Assembly: GCA_963704615.1 (NCBI GenBank)
Contig: OY969923.1
Coordinates: 2,572,068 to 2,636,067, forward strand
Reading direction: 5' to 3'
Origin: an uncultured Acidimicrobiaceae bacterium
Lineage (GTDB): Bacteria; Actinomycetota; Acidimicrobiia; Acidimicrobiales; RAAP-2
DNA length: 64,000 bases
Shown: positions 32,775 to 50,617 of the stretch, piece by piece
Layout of the letters: the number at the start of each line of letters is the position of its first letter
How positions within the stretch are numbered: position 1 is the stretch's first letter
The notes under the pieces: generated by a model
Told to the model about the DNA's origin: nothing
The model's database searches: none
What the model saw: the letters and a program-made list of their open reading frames with translations, nothing else
Program-made: the position numbers and the translations under genes

Positions 32775-32845
32775 GCGGGCGTAGTTCAGAGGCAGAACAC
32801 GAGCTTCCCAAGCTCGGAACGCGGGTTCGATTCCCGTCGCCCGCT
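32775..32845 (+). tRNA. tRNA-Gly (anticodon CCC), CCA not encoded
   Basis: GCGGGCG-TA-GTTC-AGAGGCA-GAAC-A-CGAGC-TTCCCAA-GCTCG-GAAC-GCGGG-TTCGATT-CCCGT-CGCCCGC-T. It has a 7-bp acceptor stem, a 4-nt variable loop and a U73 discriminator, as in bacterial tRNA-Gly. Confidence 0.9.
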
Positions 32846-32860
32846 CTCCAGGTCAAAAGA

Positions 32861-32888
32861 CATTTTTGTGGCTCAGCCATTTTTGTGG
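32861..32888. repeat. 11-bp direct repeat catttttgtgg x2 (period 17) immediately 3' of tRNA-Gly
   Basis: Copies at 32861-32871 and 32878-32888, read directly. This is an unusually A/T-rich patch for this window. Confidence 0.85.
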
Positions 32889-33016
32889 AGCGACTGGCTC
32901 GGTCCGCCGACCATGACCTCGGCGAACTCTGCCACCTTCACACAGGACCCGGGCGGTCTGGCTCACGGGCCACCTTGCAGACAGACTCACGGACCACGTT
33001 GCCGACAGGAGAGCAC

Positions 33017-33949: not shown

Positions 33950-34956
33950 ACATTGACATGGCCCTCCTGCGATGGGCGACTCGTCTGGCTATCGGGGGCT
34001 CCCACGAAGCAGGGTCAGTGCGCCATCCCTGAGACACACTCGACGTGTCCCCGACAATGACAATGGCCTTGATGGTCCACCTCTTTCGCTGGTCGTCAGC
34101 AGCGTCGGGAACACTGGGAGATTTTGCCTGACTTTGAGGCAAGGCATGAGGCATCCTCGGGCGTCGTCGGCCGTGCTCCTCCAGCGGCACATTGACAACG
34201 GGACTGCCCCATCCTGACCCTCGGATTGGTAGGGCAGTCAAACCACGGGAGGACAAGCTCATCTGCCTCCAACGTTTGACGGATGACCTCGGCTCTGTCA
34301 ATCGATTCTCCCGGCTGTGCAGGCAGCCGAGCCGCACTGCTCGGTGAGCGTTATCCACAGGCCCGCAGGTGCGGTCGGGGCGGGCCGTATCCCGTGTTTT
34401 GGGCAGCCTCAGAGAAGACTTCGCCATTGTCGCGACTCGGGCATAGGGTGGAGTGAAGGACAATGTGGCCTCATTCGGGTGCCGATTGCATTCCTTTCAG
34501 ATCGCCGCCAAGCCGCGCTGGGCTCGGCGGCCGATTGGAGAAGCGTGTCCACTGAAGCCGCAGTCCTCGCAGGAAGCCAGCTCGACGTACACCATGTGCC
34601 AGAGACGAACGGGCGAATGTCTGTGTGTCGACGATGCGGATCCCAAACTGATGGTCCCGAAGGTCGACACCACCTTCCTGTCGAACGACAACTGATTCGC
34701 TCCGGTGAATGGCTGGTCGCACAGGAGAGAATGGGCCACATCGATCGCGTTCGAGAGGTGCGACAAGGGTGACGCGATAGGCGTCTCAGCCCCGTGTGAT
34801 GAGGGCAGGGGCCCTTCCCTGAAAGCCCTTCGGCGCTTTGAATCCGCTTGCTTTAGCATGTGACCGATTGAAGACAGTCGGGCGATCGTCAGATTGTGCA
34901 TGAACGGTGGCGGCCGATACAAACGGATGCCGCCCTCCATCCGCAGCGGGGATCCA

Positions 34957-36609: not shown

Positions 36610-36787
36610 GACGAAACCATCAACAGGCGTTCGCAGACGAGCTGAGCCTGGTTCCCGGGTTCTTTGCCGACGAGCGGTGACCTGTGGCAGGTGTATCCGG
36701 GGTAGGCGCCCTACTCGTGGCGATGACGGCAAAGGCGGTGCGTCCCGCTCTTCAACTACTGGCTAACCCTGAGCGCGCCAGTGGCGA

Positions 36788-36982
36788 CTATCCGTCCTTT
36801 GAATTGACAACAGAGGCGTCAGGACCCGGGACGAAGAGGTCCTCATTTCCCGTGTCGCCCCACCGGACGAGGTAGGGCGGTTCGCCGTTCGGGTGACGGA
36901 TTTCTATCACTTCGCAATTTCGGCTGGGTTGCCCCACTCGCCGACCACCGATCACGATTTGGTCCCCAATTTTCGCTAGCAT
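36788..36982 (-). CDS. DUF1918 domain protein
   Basis: MLAKIGDQIVIGGRRVGQPSRNCEVIEIRHPNGEPPYLVRWGDTGNEDLFVPGPDASV matches the remembered DUF1918 pattern (..GSPPY.VRW.D...... FPGPDA.V). Confidence 0.75.
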   Translation of the reverse strand: MLAKIGDQIVIGGRRVGQPSRNCEVIEIRHPNGEPPYLVRWGDTGNEDLFVPGPDASVVNSKDG

Positions 36983-37458
36983 CGAGACTCCTTTCGTGTC
37001 TGCCTCTGCCTTCCATGGTGATCCCACGACCAGCCAAGGGCAAGAGCGAAAGTCCTGTTTTGGCCCCACCCTTCGGGCGACGCTGGGTAGCCCATCGAGA
37101 GTGGGGAGTAGGGTGGCCTTGGCGAGGTGACCGTGATCAGCACAATCTATGGAGGCAGTGGTTTGTCGGCGCTCATCACGCTCGTGGTGGTTGGCACCAT
37201 CTGGGTGCTTCTGACAGTGAGAAGTTCTCGGCCCAAGAACCGCTGACTATCCCACCCCTAGAGGGGCATGGCGGGGAATGTGCCTTCTGCGTACCCAACC
37301 AAGACGTCTCCCTCCTGTCAACATTGGTGCTCGCCGAATGAGCCCTTTTTCGACCCTGGCGACCTGTTACGCCAGAGGTGAAGGAACCCCCCCTACGGCA
37401 GCATTGCTGAGACGTCACATCGCCCGGTGATTCGACCACGCCATCGAATCGGACGGGC

Positions 37459-38049
37459 TTAACGCGAGACCGAGATCCTTTGGAGCACGGTACGCATGGC
37501 ATCTTCGGCGACGCGGAGTGGGTCTCGGTGAACGTAAATCAGGCTTACGGCGATGTAGTCGCCATCCTTAACCGAACTCAGCGAACCACCTTGTCCCCGA
37601 AGATCTTGTTGCGTCCACGGCAGCCACACGACGAGTTCCCGGTCAATGGTGAGGATCCGGGCACCGGGTTCACTTCTTGCTGCCATCGCTTGAATCCTCA
37701 GGGGCGGCGCCTTGGCGAGGGAGGCATTGATAATCAGCCTCATCTGGCTCCGTGATGATTGAAAGGTCAACCGACACTGGGAGTAGGTGGGGTTCGGTGC
37801 CGTAGTGCGAGAAACAGGAAAGCCCAGATCTGTGACCGCCTGGTCCGAAGCAGGCAACCTCAGGAGATTGCTCGCCTCTTTGGCCGACAACACCCGGCAC
37901 GCATCTGGTGCGGAGTGCACGGCGTCCGCGGCCCCTGCTTTGGAGGATGTCCCGCCCAGCTGAAGCGTGAAGCCGACAACGGCGATCAAGAAGCCGACGA
38001 CGGCGATCATGACGACTGCCGCGACCCTGAATCGGGTAGGACGCACCAC
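37459..38049 (-). CDS. N-terminally membrane-anchored hypothetical protein (loosely DUF3558-like), last gene of a 4-gene cluster
   Basis: TM helix VAAVVMIAVVGFLIAVVGFTL followed by a soluble domain (..PDACRVLSAKEASNLL..). The start lies 6-9 nt after the stop of the upstream small ORF. Confidence 0.6.
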   Translation of the reverse strand: MVRPTRFRVAAVVMIAVVGFLIAVVGFTLQLGGTSSKAGAADAVHSAPDACRVLSAKEASNLLRLPASDQAVTDLGFPVSRTTAPNPTYSQCRLTFQSSRSQMRLIINASLAKAPPLRIQAMAARSEPGARILTIDRELVVWLPWTQQDLRGQGGSLSSVKDGDYIAVSLIYVHRDPLRVAEDAMRTVLQRISVSR

Positions 38050-38058
38050 GGTGGAATC

Positions 38059-38229
38059 CTAGGGCAGGGCCGGGATGATCCGCCTCAGAAGCTTGCGGAC
38101 AGGTCCTTCGATCGGACCGGCGGCGCGCCGCATCAGGTCCAGCAGGCTCTTGCCGTCGGAACTGAACGGACTCCTCGTGGCAAACCTGGTCGAGCCCGGA
38201 AGACGAACATCGGGATCACCTCGAACCAT
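38059..38229 (-). CDS. Candidate 56-aa basic protein (below the ORF-track cutoff)
   Basis: My own translation: MVRGDPDVRLPGSTRFATRSPFSSDGKSLLDLMRRAAGPIEGPVRKLLRRIIPALP*. It exactly fills the gap between neighbouring genes, leaving 9 nt on each side. GC3 is moderate. Confidence 0.35.
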   Translation of the reverse strand: MVRGDPDVRLPGSTRFATRSPFSSDGKSLLDLMRRAAGPIEGPVRKLLRRIIPALP

Positions 38230-38238
38230 GAATCGACC

Positions 38239-38469
38239 CTAACGGCGGACCGATGAGTAGTCGGACTTCTCATCACGCTGCTGTCGAAAGGTTCGAACCG
38301 GCAGAAGGCCAACGCCAAGTCCGAGCACCACGCCGAGAGCGATGACCATGTCAGGAATGTCTGTACTCCATCCGACAATTCCGTAGAGACTCAACATCAA
38401 GCTCACGCCGATGCCCAAGAACAAACCGGCAAGGGTATTGGCAACGACGTGCCTCGCGTTGGAGTTCAT
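38239..38469 (-). CDS. Small two-TM membrane protein
   Basis: 76 aa: VANTLAGLFLGIGVSLMLSLYGIVGW and MVIALGVVLGLGVGLL. GGAGGAG lies directly upstream, between the previous stop (TAG) and this ATG. Confidence 0.55.
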   Translation of the reverse strand: MNSNARHVVANTLAGLFLGIGVSLMLSLYGIVGWSTDIPDMVIALGVVLGLGVGLLPVRTFRQQRDEKSDYSSVRR

Positions 38470-38478
38470 CCGCTCCTC

Positions 38479-39093
38479 CTAATCACTTGTCCGGACACGC
38501 ACAGGCCTGGTCCACTTCGAGATGCCGAATACGAAGAACATGACCAGTCCAGCGATGATCAAGAGCAACGCCAGCCACCAGAACGGGTTGTGACCAGGGG
38601 GGTCCATCACCCGCACCGACAAGGTTCCCGTGCAGTTCACTCCGCCGCTCCCAGTCACGGTGAAGCCGACCTCATATCTGCCGGGGAGAGTGACCGGCTC
38701 GATCGAGCTTGGCGTGAACGAGTTGGTGAATGAAGTACCACCTTGGCCGCTGTTGAATGTGCCGGACAGCCCATGCAGATGGCCGGTCACAAGTTCACCC
38801 AAGCCAAAGAGCCAAGAGGCGTTATTCACCGTAAGGCGCCACGTGCCGTCGGTCATCGGGGCATCGGTCTGCGCAGTCCATGTGACAGGGTCGGCCCAGT
38901 AGAGCTGGAATGGATTCGCACTGGTCCCGCCGGGTCCAGGGACTGCGACCGTATCGACAGAAGCGTTCTGACCGCCGGCCGAGGAGATGGAACCGGAGCA
39001 GCCCTGGCTGGCCGCGGCCTGCGCCGTCGATGCCAGTGGTCCGACTAGCAACAGGGTGACTGTCGTTGCGAGGGCAAGCGCCCGTACCATCAT
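38479..39093 (-). CDS. Secreted protein with a C-terminal TM anchor, function unknown
   Basis: Signal peptide MMVRALALATTVTLLLVGPLASTAQAAA, a Gly/Thr/Ser-rich beta-type domain, then FWWLALLLIIAGLVMFFVFGI and a basic tail. Confidence 0.65.
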   Translation of the reverse strand: MMVRALALATTVTLLLVGPLASTAQAAASQGCSGSISSAGGQNASVDTVAVPGPGGTSANPFQLYWADPVTWTAQTDAPMTDGTWRLTVNNASWLFGLGELVTGHLHGLSGTFNSGQGGTSFTNSFTPSSIEPVTLPGRYEVGFTVTGSGGVNCTGTLSVRVMDPPGHNPFWWLALLLIIAGLVMFFVFGISKWTRPVRVRTSD

Positions 39094-39234
39094 GTGGGAG
39101 TTATCGACCTCTTGCCCGCTCTCCTGAAGGTGGAGAATGCCGCCTGACCCTGCTCCGAGGCAGCAGTCGGTCGGGCAGGCGGGGACTTTCTTGATCGACT
39201 GTCGAGTGAGCTGCCGGGCTTTGCGCCTGACGCA

Positions 39235-39431
39235 CCGGCCCTGATCGTCAACTGCGACGATTTCGGCACGCTCGACGCGGTGAACGCCTCCGTGGTCGAA
39301 TCATCGACAACGGCATCGCGAGATCGGCCGGCACGGTGGTTCCATGCTCCTCCCGCGGATGGTCCAGTGAGCTTCCCGAACCCGGAGCCGGCTCAGACTG
39401 CGATCGGTCGGTGACCTCGAAGGCTCGGTGA
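39235..39431 (+). pseudogene. Relic of a YdjC/ChbG-family carbohydrate deacetylase gene (N-terminal fragment, frame-shifted, no start codon)
   Basis: PALIVNCDDFGTLDAVNASVVES reads in one frame. After a frame change near 39301-39305 it continues IDNGIARSAGTVVPCSS... Compare the remembered E. coli ChbG sequence [35 protein letters not shown]. The rest of the gene is missing, and the opposite-strand DUF2630 gene starts 70 nt further on. Confidence 0.4.
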
Positions 39432-39503
39432 GCACCTGCGCGTCCTTGATCGAGGTGGGTGTGCGCCCAGTGCCCCCGACGCCTGGCACCGCCCCTGGGC
39501 TTC

Positions 39504-39746
39504 CTACTGCCGATACCCCTCCACGGTGCCCTCCGGTCGGATCACGGCCTCGTCTGGGCTACGCCCGGCACTCCGCAGGGCTCGCCTCTGGCGGAGAAGG
39601 TCCCACATCTGGTCGAGAGCCACCTCGATCGACTTGAGACGCTTCTCTTCCTCCGGGGACAGACCCTCACCGACGTGCGTCTCCTCGAGACGCTTCTCCT
39701 CGTCGGCCAGGCTGCTGATCCGGGTGATGAGTTCGTGATCGTCCAT
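39504..39746 (-). CDS. DUF2630 family protein
   Basis: MDDHELITRISSLADEEKRLEETHVGEGLSPEEEKRLKSIEVALDQMWDLLRQRRA matches the remembered DUF2630 signature. Confidence 0.8.
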   Translation of the reverse strand: MDDHELITRISSLADEEKRLEETHVGEGLSPEEEKRLKSIEVALDQMWDLLRQRRALRSAGRSPDEAVIRPEGTVEGYRQ

Positions 39747-39829: not shown

Positions 39830-40483
39830 CCCGCTGACACCAGTCGCCGTGGGCAGGCCTGCTCCCGAGGCGTCTAGGACTTCACCGTGATGGCGCCGAT
39901 CGCCGTCGTGTTGGCTCCGTTGCTGGAGTCGGTGATGGTGACGTTGAAGGGACCGAGAGTGGCCGTCTTGGACGCCTTGAGCTTGAGCTTGAGGGTCGGG
40001 ATGGGGTGCTTCTTACTGGTCTTGCTGAGCTTGGCTGACCTCACCGTCACCCCCGCATTGGACACGGTGACGACGTCATGGGAGTCGAACCCCGTTCCCG
40101 AGACGACGGTGGTCAGCGTCAGGCCCTGCTTGATCGACGTCTTGGAGAAGCCCGTGATGGTCGGTCCGGCAACGGTGACCGACTCGGACGTCGTCTGAGT
40201 GGTGCCGTTGGTGTTGGACACCGAGGTGGTCACCGTGTACGTGCCAGGCGTGGTGTAGGTGTGGCTCGGTCCGACAACGGTCCCGGTGGCCCCGGTGATG
40301 TTGACGGTGGCCGTCTGGGGGCCACTGCCGTCGCCGTAGTTGACGGTGCCGCTCCAGGTGGCGGTGGTGTCGTCATTGGCGTTGGCGATGGTGGCCACCT
40401 GGGGCGTCGTCAGCTGCACGTTCTCTGCCGGTGACAGGGCGGTCGGGCTGGTCGTGAACGGGTTTTCGGCGGTCAGTACCACC
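39830..40483. repeat. 654-bp segment duplicated at 46065-46718 (3 mismatches seen; offset 6235 bp)
   Basis: Base-by-base comparison. Identity starts 44 nt beyond the stop codons and covers the last ~203 codons of both giant genes. Mismatches were seen near 40096, 40169 and 40188. Confidence 0.9.
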
Positions 40484-42954
40484 CCGGTGGTGCCGTACGC
40501 CACCGAATAGGCGTTCGACCCGAAGACCAAGTTGGAGAAGGTTCCGCTTACTGCGTCGCCCGAGGAGCCGCCGATCACGGTGAACATGGTGCCCGCCGTC
40601 GGCTGTGAACCCACGGTGGTCACGGCCAGGGTGCTGCCCGAGGCCAGGGACACGCCGGGTCCGGTGATGTCGCCGGTACCGGCTGTGCCGTTGACCGTGA
40701 CGCCAATGGTGCCAGTGGCTGTGTTGCTCAGCGTGCTGCTGCCGGCCAGGGCCAGCTTGCCGCCGTTGAGCACCTGCAAAGTCCCCGAGTTCGTCGTCAG
40801 GGTGGTGTCGTTCTGGGCGGTGTCGGCTGCCCCGATTGTCACCCTGCCGCCAGCCTGGTTGGTCAAGGGCGACTGGATCTGGACGGCGTTAGCCGAACCT
40901 TCGGTGGTCAGTATCCCGCCCGAGGCCACGGTCACGCCGCCCGCTCCGGTGAGCGTGTCATTACCACTGACGCCCGACTCCAGGGTGAGGGTTCCGTCGA
41001 CGGTGACCGCGCCCGGGTCGCTGAGGTCGATGCTGCCGCCCGCCCCGTCGTCGGTCACCGTCTGCCCGGAGGGGACGGTGCCGGACAGGGTGATCGAGCC
41101 GGTGGCCAAAAAGGCCCCGGTGCCCACGCTGTCGGCCAAGGTGCCACCGGTCAGGCCCACCGGGCTGCCGGACTCGGTTCCCCCGGACTGGGTGAAGGTT
41201 CCGCTGTTCTCGCTGAAGGCCCCGGTCACCGTCAGGGTGCCGGCCGCCTGGGTGAAGTTGCTGGACCCGCTCAGGTTGTATGCGCCCCCGCTGGAAACAG
41301 TGAAGGTTCCGTCGTTGGTGGTCGTGGTGGTGTCGTTCTGTGCGGTGTTGGCCGCGCCGATGGTCACCGTGCCGCCGGACTGGTTGGCCAACGTCGATTG
41401 GATCTGGACGGCGTTGGCCGAACCCTCCGTGGTCAGTTGCCCGCCCGAGGCTACGGTCACGCCGCCCACCCCGGTGAGCGTGTCATTACCACTCGCGCCG
41501 GACTCGAAGACGAGGGTGCCGTCGACGGTGATCGCCGTTGGGTCGCTGAGGTCGATGCTGCCGCCCGCCCCGTCGTCGGTCACCGTCTGCCCGGAGGGGA
41601 TGGTGCCTGATAGGGCGATCGAGCCGGTGGCCAGAAAGGCCCCGGTGCCGGCGCTGTCGGCCAGGGTGCCGCCGGTCAGACCCACCGGGTTGCCGGACTC
41701 GGTTCCGCCGGACTGGGTGAAGGTCCCGCTGTTCTCGCTGAAGGCCCCGGTCACCGTCAGGGTGCCGGCCGCCTGGGTGAAGGTGCTGGACCCGCTCACG
41801 TTATAAGCCCCACCGCTGGAGACGGTGAAGGTACCGTCGTTGGTGGTCAGGGTGGTGTCGTTCTGCGCGGTGTTGACTGCGCCGATGGTCACCGTGCCGC
41901 CCGCCTGGTTGGTCAAGGGCACCTGGATCTGGACGGCGTTGGTCGAACCCTCGGTGGTCAACTGGGCTCCCGAGGCCACGACCAGGCTCCCCGACCCGGT
42001 GACCGTGTCGTTCCCGCTGCTGCCCGACTCCAGGGTCAGGTTCCCGTCGACGGTGACCGGGCTGTTCACGCTGAGGTCGATGCTGCCGGCGGCCCCGTCG
42101 TCAGTCACCGTCTGCCCCGAGGGGATGGTGCCGGACAGGGTGATCGAGCCGGTGGCCAGAAAGGCCCCGGTGCCGGCGCTGTCGGCCAGGGTGCCACCGG
42201 TCAGGCCCACCGGGTTGCCCGATTCGGCTCCGCCGGACTGGGTGAAGGTCCCGCTGTTCTCGCTGAAGGCGCCGGTCAGGTTGAGGGTGCCGGCCGCTTG
42301 GGTGAAGTTGCTGGACCCGCCCAGGTTGTAGGCCCCCCCGCTGGAGACGGTGAAGGTTCCGTCGTTGGTGGTCAGGGTGGTGTCGTTCTGTGCGGTGTTA
42401 GCCGCCCCGATGGTCACCGTGCCCCCGGCCTGGTTGGTCACGGGCACCTGGATCTGGACGGCGTTGGTCGATCCCTCGGTGCTCAGGGTCCCGCCCGAGC
42501 CCACGGTCAGGTTGGTCCCGGTTGTGCCGACGAGCGAGGCATTGCCACTGGCGCCGGACTCGAAGGTGAGAGTACCGCCACTCTCGAGGGTGCTTGTGGT
42601 GGCGCCCAGGGACAGGTCAATGGAGCCGGCGGCCCCGTCGTCGAGGACGGTCTGGGCCCCGCTGGTCGCGCCACCGATCTGCAGTGTCCCGACCGAGGCG
42701 CTGGCGGTCAGCTCCACGGTGTACGTACCGGCCGCGCTGATGCAGGCCACGCTCGTGGCATTGGGGAAACCGGTCGACCAGTCGGACGAGCTGTTGTTCC
42801 AGTTGGTCGTTCCCGTGGTTGGGCCCACCCAGTTATCCGTGCACGTCTGAAGTGCCGCGCTTGGCGTCGCCGTGACCAGCGACACCAGGGCAATCGATCC
42901 CAACGACGCGACGGCAATGACGACCGCCATGAAGATTCTGCGCAATCCAACCAT
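39874..42954 (-). CDS. Secreted ~1026-aa repeat protein A: 4 x ~175-aa beta-helix-like units + PKD domain + Ig-like (IPT/Big-type) C-terminal domain
   Basis: GGAG lies 9 nt before the ATG at 42954. Signal peptide MVGLRRIFMAVVIAVASLGSIALVSLVTATPSAA. Repeated units have the form SGQTVTDDGAAGSIDLS...LTTEGS.NAVQIQ.PLTNQAGGTVTIGA.NTAQNDTTLTTNDGTFTVSSGGAYN..GSS.FTQAAGTL.LTGAFSENSGTFTQSGG. PKD signature VNYGDGSGPQ...HTYTTPGTYTVTTSVSN. No LPXTG motif, no C-terminal TM helix and no beta-barrel. The ORF is open to 43131. Confidence 0.85.
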   Translation of the reverse strand: MVGLRRIFMAVVIAVASLGSIALVSLVTATPSAALQTCTDNWVGPTTGTTNWNNSSSDWSTGFPNATSVACISAAGTYTVELTASASVGTLQIGGATSGAQTVLDDGAAGSIDLSLGATTSTLESGGTLTFESGASGNASLVGTTGTNLTVGSGGTLSTEGSTNAVQIQVPVTNQAGGTVTIGAANTAQNDTTLTTNDGTFTVSSGGAYNLGGSSNFTQAAGTLNLTGAFSENSGTFTQSGGAESGNPVGLTGGTLADSAGTGAFLATGSITLSGTIPSGQTVTDDGAAGSIDLSVNSPVTVDGNLTLESGSSGNDTVTGSGSLVVASGAQLTTEGSTNAVQIQVPLTNQAGGTVTIGAVNTAQNDTTLTTNDGTFTVSSGGAYNVSGSSTFTQAAGTLTVTGAFSENSGTFTQSGGTESGNPVGLTGGTLADSAGTGAFLATGSIALSGTIPSGQTVTDDGAGGSIDLSDPTAITVDGTLVFESGASGNDTLTGVGGVTVASGGQLTTEGSANAVQIQSTLANQSGGTVTIGAANTAQNDTTTTTNDGTFTVSSGGAYNLSGSSNFTQAAGTLTVTGAFSENSGTFTQSGGTESGSPVGLTGGTLADSVGTGAFLATGSITLSGTVPSGQTVTDDGAGGSIDLSDPGAVTVDGTLTLESGVSGNDTLTGAGGVTVASGGILTTEGSANAVQIQSPLTNQAGGRVTIGAADTAQNDTTLTTNSGTLQVLNGGKLALAGSSTLSNTATGTIGVTVNGTAGTGDITGPGVSLASGSTLAVTTVGSQPTAGTMFTVIGGSSGDAVSGTFSNLVFGSNAYSVAYGTTGVVLTAENPFTTSPTALSPAENVQLTTPQVATIANANDDTTATWSGTVNYGDGSGPQTATVNITGATGTVVGPSHTYTTPGTYTVTTSVSNTNGTTQTTSESVTVAGPTITGFSKTSIKQGLTLTTVVSGTGFDSHDVVTVSNAGVTVRSAKLSKTSKKHPIPTLKLKLKASKTATLGPFNVTITDSSNGANTTAIGAITVKS
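40600..42750 (-). repeat. Intragenic tandem repeat in protein A, period 525 bp (about 4 units; boundaries approximate)
   Basis: The anchor string gtcaccgtctgccc(c/g)gagggga recurs at 41054, 41579 and 42104. A degenerate copy lies near 42637. Flanking sequence is roughly 90 % identical between units by eye. Confidence 0.8.
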
Positions 42955-43406
42955 GATTATCCGCTCCGTTTCAGGTTCAGTGTGCCGCCCATACCGCCCG
43001 CCACCACAGCCACGAACCACGCGGGTCCTTGGCCGGTGTTCCCCAGGACATAAAAGCCGACAAACATCTTCTGTGCAACCACAGCGACGGCGACCGATCG
43101 AACGCATGACCACGTGTCGGTGGTCGTTCACGGTCAGTGGTCAACGCATCACTAATCGGAAATACCCCATTCGGCGTACTCGTGTGATGGTGCCGCTCGC
43201 CGCCGGGCGGTCGCCCTCTCCGCGCTGAGTTCATCACCGCCATGGTGTCGGATCGAGTCGATCACTTTAAAGGCAACGTTCGCGCGCGCGTGTCCGGCAG
43301 ATGGTTCAGCTGGGACAATCCGATTCCGCCTTCCCCGTCCTTATCCACGGAACGCGGCGACAGGGTCTCTCTCGGTGACGGACTAGAAATTCGTCGCCGG
43401 CGGGGT

Positions 43407-44123
43407 TCACTCCGTCTCGGTGTCGTTCACTCCCCGAGCCAGGTTGACCAGACGCACCACGTGGCGCCATTCGGGCTCGCGACGGTCCCCGTCCGGACCA
43501 GGCTGGGTCATTCGGGCCAGAGCCGCCACTCGACGACGGGTGGCGATCAGGGACCGGCGTCCGAAGGGCAGCGACTTCTGCGATGTCCGGGGTCGAAAGG
43601 CCCCTTGGAGTCCTCGTTCCTCGATGTCGTGCAGCGCGGCGTTGAGCTGGGAGGATGAGGAGATTCCGAGGGCGGCAACCTTGGTACTGGAACCCGGCCT
43701 GGCCCGCCGCGCCTCGTCGGGTGAGCGGATGGCATGGAGCAGGTCATCCAGGTCTCGCAGCTCGCCGTGGCCATAGAAGAAGTCAGCGCCCGCTTCCGCC
43801 ATACGCAATCGCAACAGCTCGTTGGTGACGTGGCCGCTGATGACGATGACAAGGGTCTCTTCCCTCGAGCGAACCCGTCGGACCGCCTCCACGACACGGA
43901 CCCCCGGGAATCGGTCCCACGCCTGACTGGCATCCCAGGCGTCGACCAGCACGGCATCCACGTCCGCCCACGGGACCACTCCCGAAAGAGCCTGGTCGTG
44001 ATCGCAGGCCGCCACGACCGTCAGCCCGGCGGACTCGAGTGCTGAGACCCGACCGGTCCGGACCCACATGTCGTCATCGATCACTGCGATGCGGATGCCC
44101 GGATCCTTTGCCACCGCCACCAT
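43407..44123 (-). CDS. Receiver (REC)-like domain protein with an uncharacterised C-terminal domain (atypical or pseudo-receiver)
   Basis: IRIAVIDDDMWVRTG..(acidic pocket DDD), VDAVLVDAWD (candidate phospho-Asp), TLVIVISGH (Ser at the T87 position) and AGADFFYGHG, where CheY has ..VVKPF, so no Lys is evident. The C-terminal ~110 aa has no LuxR/OmpR-type HTH that I recognise. The ORF is open to 44243. Confidence 0.65.
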   Translation of the reverse strand: MVAVAKDPGIRIAVIDDDMWVRTGRVSALESAGLTVVAACDHDQALSGVVPWADVDAVLVDAWDASQAWDRFPGVRVVEAVRRVRSREETLVIVISGHVTNELLRLRMAEAGADFFYGHGELRDLDDLLHAIRSPDEARRARPGSSTKVAALGISSSSQLNAALHDIEERGLQGAFRPRTSQKSLPFGRRSLIATRRRVAALARMTQPGPDGDRREPEWRHVVRLVNLARGVNDTETE

Positions 44124-44174
44124 GGTGACTCCTGCGAATGGATCGCGCAAACAGGGCTCTGCGAGACTTGGCCT

Positions 44175-45935
44175 GTGACCAGCGATTCGAGACGTTGGGG
44201 ACTTGCGCCCGACAGCTTCGTTGAAGCGCGTATCGCCACCCATCTGATGTGGAGGCTCGGGTCACGGTTCCATGCCGTCGTCTCGACCAGGGGTGCAGCC
44301 AAAACACCCCTGTGGCGGAGCATCGCAGCGGCGTCGGTCGGAGCCGACCTGGTCGGCGCCCGACGACTTCGGCGAGACCGAGACTTCCATCTTCTGTCCC
44401 GGCTGGTCGTCGACGCAGCTGACCTGGCCCTGTGGTGTCGAGCGGCCGGTGACGACCCGGACACCACCTCGGACAGCGTGATTCCCGGCGTCGGGCTGGC
44501 GGCCGAAGCTGGCGCACGTCTCGGTCTGGCCGGCATGGTGGTTCCCGTCGTGAACGCATCAGTCATGGCCGTCGTGCGAAAATGTCGCGGTCATGACCTT
44601 CGCCTGTGGCAGATCGGTTGGCAGGTGATGGGTGTGCTGGGAGGAATCGGGCTCTCGGTGTCGGCGGCACGTCGACGCAACGCGGTACAGGAGGACCATC
44701 GACGGGACCTCGAGGCGAGGGTGCAGGCGGCTGAGTTGGCCGGGTACCACTCATTCGTCACCGACACCGACCCGGTTGCCGACCGATTGCAGCGGGCAAC
44801 CGCCCTGGTCGAGTTGGGCGGAGGCGACCGGCGCCGTACCAGCTCGGTAGCTGCTTGGAAAGCAACCCTGGCCGAGGTCACCCGGGAACGAGCGGCCTTT
44901 CTGGCCGATGCGCTGCTGTTGTGGCAAGCCGCTCACAACCTGCACCCTGACCTGCGATCCGTTGTCCAGTTCGACATCGAACCCGGGGCCGGCACGGTGC
45001 TTTTGACACTGAGTCAGGCTGATGACCTGCGATTGGCACTCGACAACCTCGACTTGCGGGGCACGGTGGCGGTCGGACTGGTCGACGCCGCCGAAGCCCG
45101 GCGCGCCGACGGGCGTCGAGACCTGATCGTGGCTGACCACGTGGTCTCCCTGGGGCGACCGCTCGAGGCGCTCTCGGTCATCTACGACGCCATTCCGACC
45201 GCGTTCGTCATGAGCACCCTGTGGTTCGTGCCCCAACTGTCGGACACCAGAGAGGGCGTGCCGGTCCGCGCCACCCTCGTCCCCGCGGTCCTGACCACCG
45301 GTGCGGCGCTGTGGACTGCCGTCCGGGCCAATCGGGTCGGGTTGGCGCCCCGCCGCCCCTCGGTGCTGGTCTCGGGACTGGCCACCGCGATCTACACCCA
45401 GATCAGCGCAACTGGAGCCCGCAACCCCCACTCGCCGGACGGGGCGTCGTGGTTCCCCTGGATGTTGGCTCTGCAGGGCTATGAACTGGTCACCGAGCAC
45501 TGTGGCCCGGATCTGTCTCGTCGGGAGCTTCGCCTGGCCCGTCTTGGGGCCGCGGCCCTGGTGGCGGTGGGATGGTTTCGTTCGCCCCACCCCCGGTCAC
45601 TTCGCGCCCTGCTGAGCGAGGCGGTGTGGCCGCTCGGTATCGGCATCTGGGCCAGCGCCACCGCCCGGGCCATCAAGACCGATGCCGGCAATCTGGCCAC
45701 GGAGATTCGCACCGAGGACGCAGAAGCGGTTGCCGCCGCCTTCGCCGAGGGTCGCAAGCGTGTCCTTGACTATCTGACCAGCGAACTGCAGATCGCCGAG
45801 CGGGAGCTCGATCAACGTGGCAGAACGATGGAGACCCGCCACCGCTCCGAGGCCCGACGTCGACTCGCCGAGGTGAGGGATGATCTGGACGAGCTTGAGC
45901 AGATGGCGACCGCCTCGCCGGTCTCGGTCTCCTAG
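44175..45935 (+). CDS. Polytopic membrane protein with a central cytoplasmic domain and a C-terminal coiled coil; no HisKA/HATPase motifs recognised
   Basis: 586 aa. There are two clusters of hydrophobic helices (about 45-190 and about 350-510). The intervening soluble region reads ..EDHRRDLEARVQAAELAGYHSFVTDTDPVADRLQRA... The C-terminus AEAVAAAFAEGRKRVLDYLTSELQIAERELDQRGRTMETRHRSEARRRLAEVRDDLDELEQ is heptad-like. It diverges from the REC gene with a 51-bp gap. Confidence 0.65.
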   Translation: MTSDSRRWGLAPDSFVEARIATHLMWRLGSRFHAVVSTRGAAKTPLWRSIAAASVGADLVGARRLRRDRDFHLLSRLVVDAADLALWCRAAGDDPDTTSDSVIPGVGLAAEAGARLGLAGMVVPVVNASVMAVVRKCRGHDLRLWQIGWQVMGVLGGIGLSVSAARRRNAVQEDHRRDLEARVQAAELAGYHSFVTDTDPVADRLQRATALVELGGGDRRRTSSVAAWKATLAEVTRERAAFLADALLLWQAAHNLHPDLRSVVQFDIEPGAGTVLLTLSQADDLRLALDNLDLRGTVAVGLVDAAEARRADGRRDLIVADHVVSLGRPLEALSVIYDAIPTAFVMSTLWFVPQLSDTREGVPVRATLVPAVLTTGAALWTAVRANRVGLAPRRPSVLVSGLATAIYTQISATGARNPHSPDGASWFPWMLALQGYELVTEHCGPDLSRRELRLARLGAAALVAVGWFRSPHPRSLRALLSEAVWPLGIGIWASATARAIKTDAGNLATEIRTEDAEAVAAAFAEGRKRVLDYLTSELQIAERELDQRGRTMETRHRSEARRRLAEVRDDLDELEQMATASPVSVS

Positions 45936-46108
45936 TCCTCTTGATGGATCGGGTGGAGTCCACGCGCCCCTTCGGCCCGCAGACCCCCGCCTTTACTCGC
46001 CACAGCCGAGCTTGTTTCACCCGATGCAACCGGACACGCTGACGACCGCCGGGTGCGGGACTCCCCCGCTGACACCAGTCGCCGTGGGCAGGCCTGCTCC
46101 CGAGGCGT

Positions 46109-49100
46109 CTAGGACTTCACCGTGATGGCGCCGATCGCCGTCGTGTTGGCTCCGTTGCTGGAGTCGGTGATGGTGACGTTGAAGGGACCGAGAGTGGCCG
46201 TCTTGGACGCCTTGAGCTTGAGCTTGAGGGTCGGGATGGGGTGCTTCTTACTGGTCTTGCTGAGCTTGGCTGACCTCACCGTCACCCCCGCATTGGACAC
46301 GGTGACGACGTCATGGGAGTCGAACCCCGTGCCCGAGACGACGGTGGTCAGCGTCAGGCCCTGCTTGATCGACGTCTTGGAGAAGCCCGTGATGGTCGGT
46401 CCGACAACGGTGACCGACTCGGATGTCGTCTGAGTGGTGCCGTTGGTGTTGGACACCGAGGTGGTCACCGTGTACGTGCCAGGCGTGGTGTAGGTGTGGC
46501 TCGGTCCGACAACGGTCCCGGTGGCCCCGGTGATGTTGACGGTGGCCGTCTGGGGGCCACTGCCGTCGCCGTAGTTGACGGTGCCGCTCCAGGTGGCGGT
46601 GGTGTCGTCATTGGCGTTGGCGATGGTGGCCACCTGGGGCGTCGTCAGCTGCACGTTCTCTGCCGGTGACAGGGCGGTCGGGCTGGTCGTGAACGGGTTT
46701 TCGGCGGTCAGTACCACCGCGCTCGAGGGGTAGGTCACGGCGTAGGCGTTGGGCCCGAACGACAGATTGGTGAAGGTACCGGTCACCGGGCCGCCGATCG
46801 GGGTGAACATGGTGCTTGCGGTGGGCTGACTGCCCACGGTGGTCACGGCCAGGGTGCTGCCGGTGATGGTTACCCCCGGCCCGGATATGCCACCCGTACC
46901 GACGGTCCCGTTGACGGTGACCCCTAGGGTGCCGGTGCTGGTCAGGGTGCCGCCGCTACTCATGGTCAGGTGGCCGCCATTGACCACCTGGAGGGTGCCG
47001 GCGTTGGTGGTCAGGGTGCTCTCATCCTGACGGGTGTCCGGAGCACCGATGGTCACGGTGCCACCGGCCTGGTTGGTGAGCGGGGTCTCGATGTAGGCCG
47101 CCACGTCGCCCGTCCCGGTAAAGCTGGTGGACAGGTGGGCGCCGGAGGCGACGGTGAGGCCAGTTCCCGAGCCTTCGATGTCGGCATAACCACCGGCCGA
47201 GTTGGAGGTGAGGGCGAGGGTCCCGTGATCGGTCACGCCGGTGACCTGGAGGATCACATTGGTGACCCGCCCGTCGACGGTGACCGTCTGTCCGACCGGG
47301 ATGGTGCCGGTCAGCGTGGATCCGCTGCCGATGTCGTCGAACGATCCCGTGCCGGCGCTGTCGGCCAAGGTGACGTCGTTGACGTTCACCGCGTTGCCCG
47401 ATTCAGTGGCGCCGGACTGGGTGAAGGTCCCCCCGGTCTCGGTCATGGTGCCGGTCAGTGTCAGGGTACCCGCCGCGTCGGTGAACGAGCCGCCACCGGT
47501 GATCGCCAGGTTCCCACCGCTGGCCACGGTGAACGTCCCCGAGTTGGTGGTCAGCGTGTTCGAGTCCTGACGGGTGTCGGGAGCAGCGATGGTCACGGCG
47601 CCACCGGCCTGGTTGGTGACGGGAGTCTCGATGTAGGCCGGCACGTCGCCCGTTCCGGTAAAGCTGGTGGTCAGGACACCACCCGAGGCGACGGTGAGCC
47701 CACTTCCCGATCCGACGACGTCGGCATAGCCACCGGACGAGTTGGAGCTCAGGGCCAGCGTCCCGTCGTCGGTCACGCCGGTGACGGTGAGGCTCACGTT
47801 GGTGGTCCTCCCGTCCACGGTGACCGTCTGACCGACCGGGATGGTGCCGGTCAGCGTGGATCCGCTGCCGATGTCGTCGAACGATCCGGTGCCGGCGCTG
47901 TCGGCCAAGGTGACGTCGTTGACGTTGACCGGATGGCCCGATTCGGTACTCGACTGGGTGAAGGTCCCGCCGGTCTCGGTCATGGTGCCGGTCAGTGTGA
48001 GGGTGCCCGTGTTGGTGAACGAGCTGCCACCGGTGACCGACAGGTTCCCACCGCTGGCCACGGTGAACGCCCCCGAGTTGGTGGTCAGCGTGTTCGAGTC
48101 CTGACGGGTGTCAGGAGCGCTGATGGTCACGATGCCGCCGACCTGGTTGGTCAGAGGGGTCTCGATGTAGACGGGCACGGACGACACCGAGGCCAGGCTG
48201 GTGGACAGGACACCGCCCGAGGCGACGGTGAGGCCACTCCCCGACCCGGTGATCTGGGCATAGCCACCGGAAGAGTTGGAGCTCAGGGCCAGCGTCCCGT
48301 CATCGGTCACGCCGGTGACGGCGAGGCTCACGTTGGTGGTCCTCCCGTCCACGGTGACCGTCTGTCCGACCGGGATGGTGCCGGTCAGTGTGGATCCGCT
48401 GCCGATGTCGTCGAACGATCCGGTGCCGGCGCTGTCGGCCAAGGTGACGTCGTTGACGTTCACCGCGTTGCCCGATTCAGTAGCGCCGGACTGGGTGAAG
48501 GTCCCGTTCGTCTCGGTCATGGTGCCGGTCAGTGTGAGGGTGCCGGCCGTGTTGGTGAACGAGCTGCCACCGGTGACCGCCAGGTTCCCACCGCTGGCCA
48601 CGGAGAACGTCCCCGAGTTGGTGGTCAGCGTGTTCGAGTCCTGACGGGTGTCGGGAGCACCGATGGTCACGGTGCCGCCGGCCTGGTTGGTGAGGGGGGT
48701 CTCGATGTAGGCCGGCACGTCGCCCGTTCCGGTAAAACTGGTCGACAGGACCCCACCGGAGGTGACGGTCACGCCACCGGCGCCACTGATGTCGGCATAA
48801 CCACCGCTGGAGTTGGGGTTGAGCGCCAGTACGCCGGTGCTTCCCACCGTGCTGGCCGCGCCAACCGACAGGTTGACGTTGGTGGAGGAGCCGTCCACCT
48901 TCAGCGTCTGGGTGCCGCTGGCCCCGTCGCTGATCTGCACCGCACCGACAGTTTCGCTCCCGGTCATATCCACCGTGTAGGTGCCACTTGCGTAGATGCA
49001 GGCCACATCGCTGCTGGTCGGCACTCGCGCCGGTAACCAGTTGCCGGGGGAAGACCAGTTTCCGCTGGAGCCCGTCGCCCAGTCGATCGTGCAGGTGGCG

Positions 49101-49201
49101 GCGGCGCTGGGCGTGGCTGTGGCCACGGACACCGCCGCTATCGAACCCAACGAGGTCAATGCAAGCGCGACCGCCATGACAATTCTGCGCATTCCCACCA
49201 T
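46109..49201 (-). CDS. Secreted ~1030-aa repeat protein B, a paralogue of A: 4 x ~178-aa beta-helix-like units + PKD + Ig-like C-terminal domain
   Basis: GGAG lies 9 nt before the ATG at 49201. Signal peptide MVGMRRIVMAVALALTSLGSIAAVSVATATPSAA. Units have the form VGQTVTVDGRTTNVSL.VTGVTDDGTLALSSNSSGGYA...VPAYIETPLTNQAGGTVTI.APDTRQDSNTLTTNSGTFTVASGGNL. The C-terminal 203 aa are identical to protein A except for one residue (A/V). The ORF is open to 49312. Confidence 0.85.
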   Translation of the reverse strand: MVGMRRIVMAVALALTSLGSIAAVSVATATPSAAATCTIDWATGSSGNWSSPGNWLPARVPTSSDVACIYASGTYTVDMTGSETVGAVQISDGASGTQTLKVDGSSTNVNLSVGAASTVGSTGVLALNPNSSGGYADISGAGGVTVTSGGVLSTSFTGTGDVPAYIETPLTNQAGGTVTIGAPDTRQDSNTLTTNSGTFSVASGGNLAVTGGSSFTNTAGTLTLTGTMTETNGTFTQSGATESGNAVNVNDVTLADSAGTGSFDDIGSGSTLTGTIPVGQTVTVDGRTTNVSLAVTGVTDDGTLALSSNSSGGYAQITGSGSGLTVASGGVLSTSLASVSSVPVYIETPLTNQVGGIVTISAPDTRQDSNTLTTNSGAFTVASGGNLSVTGGSSFTNTGTLTLTGTMTETGGTFTQSSTESGHPVNVNDVTLADSAGTGSFDDIGSGSTLTGTIPVGQTVTVDGRTTNVSLTVTGVTDDGTLALSSNSSGGYADVVGSGSGLTVASGGVLTTSFTGTGDVPAYIETPVTNQAGGAVTIAAPDTRQDSNTLTTNSGTFTVASGGNLAITGGGSFTDAAGTLTLTGTMTETGGTFTQSGATESGNAVNVNDVTLADSAGTGSFDDIGSGSTLTGTIPVGQTVTVDGRVTNVILQVTGVTDHGTLALTSNSAGGYADIEGSGTGLTVASGAHLSTSFTGTGDVAAYIETPLTNQAGGTVTIGAPDTRQDESTLTTNAGTLQVVNGGHLTMSSGGTLTSTGTLGVTVNGTVGTGGISGPGVTITGSTLAVTTVGSQPTASTMFTPIGGPVTGTFTNLSFGPNAYAVTYPSSAVVLTAENPFTTSPTALSPAENVQLTTPQVATIANANDDTTATWSGTVNYGDGSGPQTATVNITGATGTVVGPSHTYTTPGTYTVTTSVSNTNGTTQTTSESVTVVGPTITGFSKTSIKQGLTLTTVVSGTGFDSHDVVTVSNAGVTVRSAKLSKTSKKHPIPTLKLKLKASKTATLGPFNVTITDSSNGANTTAIGAITVKS
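46850..49000 (-). repeat. Intragenic tandem repeat in protein B, period 534-540 bp (about 4 units; boundaries approximate)
   Basis: The anchor ggtgaccgtctg(t/a)ccgaccggg recurs at 47279, 47819 and 48353, with a degenerate copy near 48893. Confidence 0.8.
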
Positions 49202-49459
49202 GTTCATCCGCTCCGTTCCATGTTTCGGTCCGCCGGGCCGCGCACATCGACAGACATTTGCATGCACGACGGCTGGCAGGCCCCTTGGGACAGTTAAACG
49301 GAAGCCGATCAAGCTTGCAAGCGACGTCAGTCTCTTACCGTGTCAGCCCTCGAAGCGTGGCCACACGTTCTCATTACGTCGCCGATTCATCGATCGGCAA
49401 GCCAGCCGCGATCCTGCCGGCCGGAATGCAATCGGACGATCTCCCTCGGCAGTCCGTCC

Positions 49460-50617
49460 TCAGCGCGGCGCCCTCGGCATCCCCATGCCGACCATGGCGA
49501 TGATGTCGCGCTGGATTTCGTTGGTCCCGCCCCCGAAGGTGAAGATGGTCTGGCTACGGGAGCTGCGTTCGAGCTGGCCGCGCAGGACGGCCCCGGGCGA
49601 CCCCTCGGGTAGGTAGCCGGCCTGGCCCACGATCTCGAGGAGCAGGCGGTAGGCCTCGAGGGCGAACTCGGTGCCGAACACCTTGGTGGCCGAGGCGTCC
49701 GCCGGATCGAGGCCCTTGTCCGCGGCCCAGGCCACCTTCCAGTTGAGCAACTTCAGGAACTCGGCCCTGGCCTCGGCCCGGGCCAGATGGAGCTGGACCC
49801 ACTCCCGGTCGATGACTCGCCCCCCGTCGGCCAACCGCTCGTTCCGGGCCCATTCCGCCACCTCGGCGATGCTGCGAAGGATGCCAGACACCGGGCAGAT
49901 GGCCACCCGCTCGTGGTTGAGCTGGTTGGTGATCAGCTTCCAGCCCTGGTTCTCCTCGCCCACCAGGTTGGCCACCGGAACCCTGACCTCGTCGTAGAAG
50001 GTGGAGCTGGTGAATTCACCGGCCGTCGTGCGCAGCGGTGTCCAATGGAACCCGGGTGCGTCGACGGGGACGATGAACACCGAGAGCCCCTTGTGTTTGG
50101 GCAACGTCGGATCGGTCCTCGCCGCCAGCCACACGTAGTCGGCGTACTGGATGGCGCTGGTGTACAGCTTCTCGCCGGTGATCACGTACTCGTCACCGTC
50201 TCGCACCGCCCGGGTCTGGAGCGAGGCCAAGTCGGTTCCGGCGGTGGGCTCGGTGTAGCCGATGGCGAAGTGGACCTCGCCCCGGAGGATCCCCGGGAGG
50301 ATCCGTTGCTTCTGCTCGTCGGTGCCGAGTGCCATCAGGGTCGGACCGACGCTGTTGAGGGTGAGCAGCGGGAGCGGAACCCCGGCCCAGTGGGACTCCT
50401 CGACGAAGATCATCTGGTCAATGGGCCCACGGGCCTGGCCTCCGTATTCGATGGGCCATCCCAGGCCGAGCCAGCGGTCCTCCCCCATCCGCCGGATGAA
50501 GTGCTTGTAGGCCGGCTCTTCGGAGTCGAGTGCGTCCACCTCGTCGACCAAGCCCGCGAAGTAGGCGCGCAGCACACACTTGAGGGCGTCTTGTTCTTCG
50601 GTCAGTGCCAACTGCAT
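49460..50617 (-). CDS. Acyl-CoA dehydrogenase family protein
   Basis: 385 aa. LGWPIEYGGQ, GYTEPTAGTDLASLQTRA, ITGEKLYTS and the C-terminal IFTFGGGTNEIQRDIIA are ACAD blocks. Confidence 0.9.
   Translation of the reverse strand: MQLALTEEQDALKCVLRAYFAGLVDEVDALDSEEPAYKHFIRRMGEDRWLGLGWPIEYGGQARGPIDQMIFVEESHWAGVPLPLLTLNSVGPTLMALGTDEQKQRILPGILRGEVHFAIGYTEPTAGTDLASLQTRAVRDGDEYVITGEKLYTSAIQYADYVWLAARTDPTLPKHKGLSVFIVPVDAPGFHWTPLRTTAGEFTSSTFYDEVRVPVANLVGEENQGWKLITNQLNHERVAICPVSGILRSIAEVAEWARNERLADGGRVIDREWVQLHLARAEARAEFLKLLNWKVAWAADKGLDPADASATKVFGTEFALEAYRLLLEIVGQAGYLPEGSPGAVLRGQLERSSRSQTIFTFGGGTNEIQRDIIAMVGMGMPRAPR

Follow-up and report, generated by a model that had tools for sequence, protein, structure and literature searches.

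A conserved pair of genes for an atypical response regulator and an unnamed membrane protein between two secreted repeat-protein genes of an uncultured Acidimicrobiaceae bacterium

The window analysed here is a stretch of 64,000 nucleotides from the genome of an uncultured Acidimicrobiaceae bacterium (contig OY969923.1, positions 2,572,068 to 2,636,067). Two paralogous genes in the window, named A and B, encode large secreted repeat proteins and flank a gene for an atypical response regulator (REC) and a gene for a polytopic membrane protein (MEM). REC and MEM are an autonomous, conserved, and uncharacterised pair that is found across many Acidimicrobiia genomes. In the interpretation that we favour, with a probability of about 0.6, A and B are ordinary repeat proteins that flank a kinase-independent signalling pair, which has possibly been co-opted locally. 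The original prediction, made from the sequence of the window alone, had described the four genes as one module in which REC and MEM form a dedicated sensing and expression unit for A and B.

REC and MEM form a conserved gene pair

Fifteen distinct MEM loci were examined, together with up to 10 kb of flanking DNA on each side. REC adjoins MEM in 13 of them: the window, L001, L002, L004–L007, L009–L012, L020, and L021. The adjacency persists between loci in which the MEM proteins are only about 25–30% identical (MEM matches of 215–375 bits). Most of the loci have the two genes in divergent orientation. In L002 they converge and overlap at their 3′ ends, and in L011, L020, and L021 they run in the same direction. 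In L020 and L021, whose MEM proteins are among the most distant homologues examined, the stop and start codons of REC and MEM overlap. The two protein families are similar in size and share contigs, as determined by an indexed search. The other neighbours of the pair are unrelated and include genes for an SDR protein, a TetR regulator, a GGDEF-EAL protein, GroEL, DinB, a periplasmic binding protein, a methyltransferase, a beta-lactamase, cytochrome bd, and GerE regulators. The preservation of the REC–MEM adjacency amid unrelated neighbours identifies the two genes as an autonomous conserved pair.

A general third partner of REC–MEM was not identified; a candidate was found in two loci only. 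A protein of approximately 380–390 amino acids, with no Pfam or NCBIfam match, is encoded after MEM in L001 (3595–4770) and L012 (9022–10155), and may be a lineage-specific third partner. The relatives of the locus found by similarity are metagenome-assembled genomes labelled Acidimicrobiales or Acidimicrobiia. The contigs of L006 (CAWHLU010000003.1) and L009 (DASRCF010000270.1) are labelled Acidobacteriaceae and Chloroflexota. Their REC–MEM loci match those of Acidimicrobiia, and L006 also has full synteny, so the two contigs have probably been mis-binned or given the wrong label.

REC is an atypical response regulator

REC consists of a receiver domain (residues ~10–121) and a basic, helical C-terminal domain (residues ~122–238). 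The Pfam model Response_reg (PF00072) matches REC with 27.0 bits, which is under its gathering score of 30.2, and a precomputed PF00072 match exists for about half of the REC homologues. An AlphaFold2 model of REC, calculated with 24 homologues, has a predicted local distance difference test score (pLDDT) of 90.6 and a predicted TM-score (pTM) of 0.89. Strands and helices alternate in residues 10–121 of the model. In Foldseek comparisons with isolated receiver domains, the TM-scores normalised to the target length are 0.65–0.79, with a root-mean-square deviation (rmsd) of about 3 Å. As modelled, REC has a true receiver fold of the (beta-alpha)5, CheY-like type. The best matches to full-length REC are the NarL/FixJ-type regulators RcsB, EvgA, FixJ, and VraR, with E-values of 1e-5 to 1e-6. 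The alignments to RcsB, EvgA, and FixJ cover 225–245 columns with an rmsd of 7–13 Å and TM-scores of 0.43–0.49, values that come from the whole-protein search only.

The residues D15, D16, and D60 are invariant among the 24 REC homologues, and D60 aligns with the acceptor aspartates of the structures 2qsj and 3luf. Residue S95, at the end of strand beta4, is conserved as Ser or Thr within the motif (I/V)(S/T)GH. The absence of the conserved lysine, noticed previously in REC itself, is a property of the family: the position is occupied by histidine (His118 in REC) in most homologues, by alanine or arginine in a few, and never by lysine. The loop between beta3 and alpha3 is extended and carries the invariant signature DAWD...FDRFPGV.

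The C-terminal domain of approximately 115 residues is helical, has an isoelectric point of 11.3 compared to 4.8 for the receiver, and contains the conserved motif SRRxxIxARRR. None of 14 homologues has a Pfam match in this domain at E ≤ 10, nor was a match found among PDB sequences, in agreement with the earlier statement that REC is devoid of a known output domain. At the level of sequence and profiles, the assignment of the domain to the GerE/LuxR family was rejected, as the Pfam and PDB searches were negative and an hhalign comparison with four GerE domains gave a probability of 0.05. GerE helix-turn-helix domains are about 65 residues long, and the C-terminal domain of REC is longer. The domain is plausibly nucleic-acid-binding.

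MEM represents an unnamed family of membrane proteins

MEM has no Pfam or NCBIfam match (E ≤ 0.1), and its family profile does not match any PDB sequence. A word-indexed search identified 32 homologues, and an exhaustive profile search returned 406 clusters (50% identity), of which 198 have E ≤ 1e-30. Nearly all are 560–610 residues long, match from end to end, and share one architecture. Ten distant members do not contain any Pfam domain. A scan of metagenomes yielded only one short locus. For both MEM and the C-terminal domain of REC, the searches returned no confident match to a characterised family; such a match is what the original prediction had named as evidence against itself.

The AlphaFold2 model of MEM (pLDDT 87, pTM 0.76) is divided into two helical halves and a middle domain. 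The N-terminal half is built of four helices (residues 13–137), followed by a 72-residue helix (144–215), the first third of which is hydrophobic, and a return helix (224–239). The middle part is an alpha/beta domain of about 90 residues (240–332), the sole non-helical domain of the protein. The C-terminal half contains five helices (340–469), a 76-residue helix (476–551), and a final helix (554–580). The hhalign comparison of the N-terminal half with the C-terminal half gave an E-value of 0.18, which is not significant, and internal duplication of MEM was rejected.

Conservation was evaluated in an alignment of 133 members of the family with a median identity of 28%. Residues R31, D58, R76, and E111 are conserved in at least 90% of the sequences, D80 in 87%, and D83 in 82%; all are located in the first helical bundle, for whose charged residues values of 94–99% were recorded. 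D203 and R563, positioned in or near the tips of the two long helices, are 93–98% conserved. The core of the alpha/beta domain is conserved as well, including the near-invariant N255, which is followed by a glycine-rich strand; residues 240–332 do not contain a conserved aspartate. The alignment has no conserved histidine: H33, H140, and H419 are present in 23–26% of the members. Residue H175 resembled an H-box in an alignment of 21 sequences, but is present in only 61 of the 133 members (46%). Since MEM also has no ATPase domain and no HisKA or HATPase_c match, the histidine-kinase reading was rejected, and the earlier observation that MEM is devoid of H-box and ATPase motifs is upheld.

The top Foldseek matches of the MEM model are the membrane adenylyl cyclases AC9 (7pde, 6r3q) and AC5 (8sl3), with E-values of 6e-4 to 7e-3 and a probability of about 1, and the resemblance appears to be one of layout. 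One other match, to the Umb1 toxin particle, is below an E-value of about 1e-2 (TM-score 0.12, probability 0.44). Membership of MEM among the cyclases was rejected because of the absence of the cyclase catalytic domain (PF00211), the low TM-scores, and the lack of a conserved aspartate in the alpha/beta domain. MEM is neither a histidine kinase nor a cyclase; in shape it is like a membrane protein that transduces signals.

One metagenomic protein, P0220 (JGI metagenome 3300047160), whose gene lies on a contig of 4.8 kb, joins a MEM homologue without interruption to YukD and EccD, the latter a membrane component of type VII secretion. Downstream of P0220 are three genes for proteins of 93–116 residues, with a weak WXG100 gene. 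P0220, which is either a genuine fusion or the product of merged gene calls, is the sole hint of a link to a type VII secretion system. The Peptidase_S8 protein encoded near L002 does not match any NCBIfam model, that of mycosin included.

REC–MEM is not a dedicated controller of A and B

Homologues of A and B are linked to REC–MEM in three of the 13 loci, the window, L004, and L006, which belong to one syntenic clade. The MEM proteins of L004 and L006 are 90% and 63% identical to that of the window. That of L005 is 69% identical, and no A/B homologue is located beside the pair in L005. Altogether, ten of the 13 REC–MEM pairs do not have an A/B homologue in their flanks. L004 and L006 contain a single gene of the A/B family, in L004 at the position of A, and no gene at the position of B; the next gene after MEM is that for the acyl-CoA dehydrogenase. 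Conversely, REC–MEM is missing from all four independent A/B loci outside the clade, and the A/B homologues of L016/L017, L018, and L022 are not accompanied by the pair. The four-gene module of the original prediction is therefore not borne out. Outside the window, A/B homologues co-occur with REC–MEM only in L004 and L006, which comes close to the accidental adjacency that the prediction had itself named as the contrary outcome. The proposed sensing and expression unit stands in part: REC–MEM is a real conserved pair, but it is not dedicated to A and B, as its neighbours in ten loci are unrelated to them.

Synteny between locus L015 and the window extends over both flanks, with anchor proteins that are 70–80% identical. 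The shared order is SnoaL_4, GH38, FTHFS, PhyH, DUF2630, A/B homologue, X, second A/B homologue, acyl-CoA dehydrogenase, and SDR. In L015, X is a gene for a 970-residue BTAD-domain regulator (6984–9896, minus strand), which lies on the opposite strand, divergent to an A/B-family gene and exactly in the place of REC–MEM. In the non-syntenic locus L018, a 55%-identical homologue of this regulator (7018–9855, minus strand) is divergent to an A/B homologue. The regulators of L015 and L018 have 945–970 residues; a Pfam BTAD match is recorded for the L015 protein only, which has a weak MalT-like N-terminus. No homologue of the L015 regulator was found in the window. Two flanking A/B-family genes are probably ancestral to the group of the window and L015. 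The BTAD regulator of L015, together with its homologue beside an A/B gene in L018, makes the space between the A/B genes look like a regulator slot whose occupant has been exchanged. The circumstantial evidence is such that REC–MEM might have been co-opted here to regulate A, B, or both.

Other large secreted repeat proteins are encoded near REC–MEM in three loci by raw count: a Big_3_5 protein in L010, an FG-GAP protein in L009, and a CHAP-NHL-fn3 protein in L021.

A and B belong to a large family of secreted repeat proteins

Proteins A and B are colinear and 62% identical. Their paralogy and the common succession of signal peptide, cap, four repeat units, and PKD domain were confirmed; the beta-helix-like fold of the units and the Ig-like C-terminal domain of the original prediction are putative. 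At the N-terminus of both is a Sec-type signal peptide, after which come a cap that contains two cysteines and three tryptophans (residues 37–71) and the four repeat units. The period of the repeats, measured as the spacing of motifs in the protein, is exactly 175 residues in A and 178–180 residues in B. The sole Pfam match in either protein is PKD_4/PKD at residues ~835–930. The PKD_4 scores of 29.8 bits for A (residues 845–926, E-value 6.4e-7) and 29.9 bits for B are above the gathering score of 27. In A, the PKD domain is followed by a C-terminal domain of about 95 residues. The C-terminal domains of the two proteins do not have a Pfam match, and the repeat unit has no match in Pfam or among PDB sequences. 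Tandem Repeats Finder did not detect the repeats of A and B because their period of 525–540 bp exceeds the 500-bp limit of the program.

As previously claimed, neither protein has a wall or membrane anchor of the kinds searched for. There is no C-terminal LPXTG motif or transmembrane anchor, and the C-terminus ...AIGAITVKS is reached without a transmembrane segment; LAxTG-like strings are internal only and lie inside the repeats. The A/B family contains at least 168 proteins of 450–1400 residues. Its members have in common the signal peptide and the Cys/Trp cap, whereas the number of ~175-residue units and the type of C-terminal domain (PKD, TIG, LTD, Big, or other Ig-like domains) vary. Homologues are named 'beta strand repeat-containing protein' or 'fibronectin-binding autotransporter adhesin' in their sources. 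The family is a large one of secreted repeat proteins from Acidimicrobiales that are rich in Thr, Gly, and Ser; A and B are ordinary members of it, and are probably extracellular adhesin-like or matrix proteins.

The main interest of A and B themselves lies in their clear concerted evolution and in a 654-bp conversion tract. Units 1–3 are 77–85% identical within one protein (77–84% in A), and 48–57% identical between A and B. The higher identity within than between the proteins points to concerted evolution inside each of the two genes. The divergent unit is the fourth, with 53–64% identity to units 1–3 in A and 60% identity between the fourth units of A and B. The two copies of the tract (Table 1) differ by three mismatches in 654 bp, at positions 40096, 40169, and 40189, and are separated by a constant offset of 6235 bp. 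The tract spans the last ~203 codons, which encode the PKD and C-terminal domains, and extends 44 bp past the stop codon. In the protein alignment, 196 of 197 residues at the C-termini of A and B are identical. Outside the tract, the two genes are about 70% identical at the DNA level. The difference between this value and the near-identity of the tract copies indicates that the 3′ ends of A and B were homogenised by recent gene conversion. The copies also constitute 654-bp direct repeats 6.2 kb apart; if they recombined, REC and MEM would be lost together with parts of A and B.

Non-coding regions of the locus

The 452-nucleotide stretch between REC and A is 76–79% identical to positions 8782–9235 of L004 and 8776–9225 of L006, whose MEM proteins are 63–90% identical to that of the window. 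A small conserved open reading frame within it was rejected, since the substitutions do not follow a three-base (codon) periodicity. No Rfam family was detected in the stretch, and a search of the region from 39 to 50 kb returned only sub-threshold chance matches. The covariation term calculated by RNAalifold was −0.6 kcal/mol, from three sequences, a number too small to be informative on covariation. The stretch probably serves A as promoter or leader, and it may be a structured leader or complex promoter.

The 51-bp gap between REC and MEM has a near-identical counterpart in L004 and in L006, whereas that of L005 is different, and does not contain a detectable sigma-70 consensus. A scan for consensus promoters and terminators found nothing above the expectation from shuffled sequences, and the 3′ tails of the genes did not show significant hairpins. 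A regulatory motif shared by the upstream regions of A and B was rejected: their homology ends about 23 bp upstream of the starts, and blastn found nothing in common.

Organization of the locus and its genomic context

The four open reading frames, their strands, and the divergent gap between REC and MEM agree with those given by the original prediction (Table 1). The DNA of the window has a high GC content of 0.62–0.70. Antisense open reading frames of up to 688 codons extend over A and B (40532–42850 and 46970–49036, both on the plus strand); they were rejected as shadow frames, which arise from the GC-rich third codon positions that they have in common with the sense frame, itself rich in Thr, Gly, and Ser. 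A literature search on the locus found nothing relevant.

Table 1 Features of the locus (positions in the window)
Feature	Position	Strand	Description
DUF2630 gene	39504–39746	−	Left synteny anchor; Pfam E-value 1.6e-27; 79–84% identity and same relative position in L004, L006, and L015
Conversion tract, copy 1	39830–40483	−	3′ end of A plus 44 bp; 99.5% identity to 46065–46718
Gene A	39874–42954	−	Open reading frame, 1026 residues; secreted repeat protein
Repeat units of A	40567–42675	−	Four tandem Thr/Gly/Ser-rich units (residues 94–796); 175-residue motif spacing
Non-coding stretch	42955–43406	−	452 nucleotides, REC stop to A start
REC	43407–44123	−	Open reading frame, 238 residues; atypical response regulator
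REC/MEM intergenic gap	44124–44174		Divergent, 51 bp
MEM	44175–45935	+	Open reading frame, 586 residues; polytopic membrane protein of an unnamed family
Conversion tract, copy 2	46065–46718	−	3′ end of B plus 44 bp
Gene B	46109–49201	−	Open reading frame, 1030 residues; paralogue of A
Acyl-CoA dehydrogenase gene	49460–50617	−	Right synteny anchor; 75–91% identity and same relative position in L004, L006, and L015

None of the 20 other open reading frames of the window that were scanned encodes a histidine kinase. The window encodes a 746-residue sensor protein with PAS, GAF, and SpoIIE (PP2C-type phosphatase) domains (23278–25518, plus strand), and two tandem GGDEF-EAL genes (59597–61471 and 61509–63509, both on the minus strand). 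A GGDEF-EAL gene is also located downstream of REC–MEM in L007; a link between it and the genes in the window was not established. The PhyH and DUF2630 genes, which adjoin in the syntenic locus L015, are separated in the window by about 6.8 kb (32685–39500). This interval encodes a GH20 hexosaminidase (34894–36609), a 196-residue N-terminally anchored protein (37459–38049), and a 204-residue secreted protein with a C-terminal transmembrane helix (38479–39093); the latter two have no family match.

Discussion

A mechanism can be proposed for the pair in which MEM would sense a membrane or envelope cue via its conserved buried charges R31, D58, R76, D80/D83, and E111. Each half of MEM ends in a long helix, and the two helices may form, together with the small alpha/beta domain, a non-membrane module that is presumed to be cytoplasmic. 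The signal would pass along this module to REC by direct contact, and not by His-to-Asp phosphotransfer. REC, which combines an intact acidic pocket and a special beta3-alpha3 loop with the absence of the switch lysine, would respond to the contact with or without phosphorylation from another donor, and would then bind nucleic acid through its basic C-terminal domain. The probable local targets would be the promoter region between the divergent rec and mem genes and possibly also, within this clade, the conserved leader in front of A. We infer the topology of MEM, its sensing, and any control of A or B.

Several points weigh against the view of REC–MEM as an autonomous, kinase-independent signalling pair between ordinary repeat proteins. 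REC was not detected within the flanks of two MEM loci, L013 and L019. The interaction of REC with MEM, DNA binding by REC, and the side of the membrane on which the MEM helices are placed are what we infer. The hydropathy of several MEM helices is only moderate and supports several, not all, of them as transmembrane. The similarity of the MEM model to adenylyl cyclases is weak, with TM-scores of 0.32–0.39 and an rmsd of about 21 Å, and appears to be limited to layout. In a small test at the level of profiles, the C-terminal domain of REC appeared to be dissimilar to GerE-type helix-turn-helix domains. REC may still be phosphorylated, because its Asp-Asp/Asp/Ser pocket is retained, and this would need a donor. 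Finally, large secreted repeat proteins are encoded near REC–MEM in six of the 15 loci, and a looser functional link of the pair to surface proteins is conceivable.

A more far-reaching version of the proposal regards MEM as a new class of membrane sensor, with the layout of a membrane adenylyl cyclase and no catalytic, kinase, or phosphotransfer activity, which drives by contact the lysine-less REC and its novel nucleic-acid-binding domain. In this lineage, the pair would have displaced a BTAD regulator and would control the two adhesin-like genes. We consider it tentative and rather doubtful in this complete form. The dedicated unit of the original prediction, with MEM as the sensor, REC as the transducer, and both A and B as the regulated output, is unlikely. 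It draws on the position of REC directly upstream of A, on the same strand and with a conserved leader between them, and on the same layout, with one A/B-family gene, in L004 and L006. The BTAD regulator that occupies the same slot between the A/B homologues of L015, its homologue beside an A/B gene in L018, and the other large secreted repeat proteins near REC–MEM in L009, L010, and L021 (as raw counts) would also fit a regulatory role. The distribution of the genes argues otherwise, as most REC–MEM pairs have no A/B homologue in their flanks, the four independent A/B loci outside the clade have no REC–MEM, and B has no counterpart in the closest relative, L004, where the pair persists. The brevity of the homology upstream of A and B and the absence of a detected common motif also speak against joint control of the two genes.

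The remaining alternatives concern the function of MEM. It could be a transporter, channel, or secretion component controlled by REC, which would be phosphorylated by an unlinked kinase or acetyl phosphate. Buried conserved charges such as R31, D58, R76, and E111 are typical of ion or substrate translocators, many lower-ranked Foldseek matches of MEM are transporters, the acidic pocket of REC is intact, and a divergent arrangement of a regulator and its target is common. P0220 joins a MEM homologue to the YukD-EccD part of a type VII secretion locus with WXG100-sized genes behind it, but this is a single case on a short contig and possibly a gene-calling merge. The overlap of the co-directional REC and MEM genes in L020 and L021 suggests co-translated partners rather than a regulator and its target, and the long paired helices with the small alpha/beta domain resemble a signalling module. 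This alternative is improbable. Least credible is a non-canonical phosphorelay, in which MEM would be a new kinase or phosphatase acting on D60 of REC with neither a Bergerat ATPase domain nor a histidine that is conserved. The invariant pocket of REC (D15, D16, D60, and Ser/Thr95), the conserved residues D203 and R563 at the helix tips of MEM, and N255, which is located at a helix end before a glycine-rich strand and faintly recalls an N-box, are compatible with this idea. Against it, no HisKA or HATPase_c signal was detected in MEM at any threshold, the alpha/beta domain of only ~90 residues has no equivalents of the G1 and G2 boxes, there is no conserved histidine, and REC does not have the lysine that normally couples phosphorylation to the conformational switch.

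The novelty of the locus lies in REC–MEM, a widespread, unnamed, and kinase-less partner system for an atypical response regulator. If the favoured reading is correct, a membrane partner without a kinase domain or phosphorylatable histidine can drive signalling through a receiver domain, and a first functional handle is provided on about 400 sequence clusters that lie outside all Pfam and NCBIfam models. Should MEM prove to be a new class of membrane sensor, the pair would be a two-component system without a kinase that is widespread in Acidimicrobiia. The replacement of a BTAD regulator by REC–MEM at one syntenic slot would be a natural experiment on the exchange of regulators of large surface proteins. 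Acidimicrobiia, which abound in soil, freshwater, and the sea, are poorly represented in culture; because of this, to our knowledge, their basic signalling modules have not been studied.

Comparison with known systems

Sensor histidine kinases resemble MEM in being membrane proteins encoded beside a receiver and in having long helices that emerge from transmembrane bundles, like signalling helices or the DHp domain. MEM differs from them in the absence of HisKA, HATPase_c, and a conserved histidine, and in having two transmembrane bundles in one chain. The class III adenylyl cyclases AC9 and AC5 are the best structural matches, and the MEM model appears to follow their succession of transmembrane bundle, long helix, soluble domain, second transmembrane bundle, and second long helix. 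In contrast to these enzymes, MEM has a single alpha/beta domain of about 90 residues, no metal-binding pair of aspartates, no catalytic domain recognisable by sequence, and no detectable internal sequence duplication.

REC shares with the NarL/FixJ regulators RcsB, EvgA, FixJ, and VraR the receiver fold, the Asp-Asp pocket, the acceptor aspartate, the Ser/Thr residue, the two-domain organization, and a length of about 235 residues. It differs from them by the histidine in place of lysine, the extended beta3-alpha3 loop, the lack of a GerE match, and a conserved partner that is not a histidine kinase. FrzS, HP1043, ChxR, and AmiR are atypical receivers or pseudo-receivers with incomplete active-site residues, which probably signal by protein contacts. 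Many such proteins have lost the acidic pocket or the acceptor aspartate, whereas REC has lost only the lysine. We know of no pseudo-receiver of this kind that is paired with a MEM-like membrane protein.

What A and B share with 'beta strand repeat-containing' and autotransporter-adhesin-like proteins is the signal peptide, the PKD domain near the C-terminus, and repeats that are rich in Thr, Gly, and Ser and show short beta-strand patterns. Unlike the latter, they do not have a beta-barrel translocator, which would be unexpected in a presumed monoderm, or an LPXTG, SLH, or transmembrane anchor, and their repeat unit is unmatched in Pfam and among PDB sequences. The large BTAD/SARP-like regulators are not related in sequence to REC or MEM, but in L015 and L018 they hold the position beside A/B homologues that REC–MEM holds in the window.

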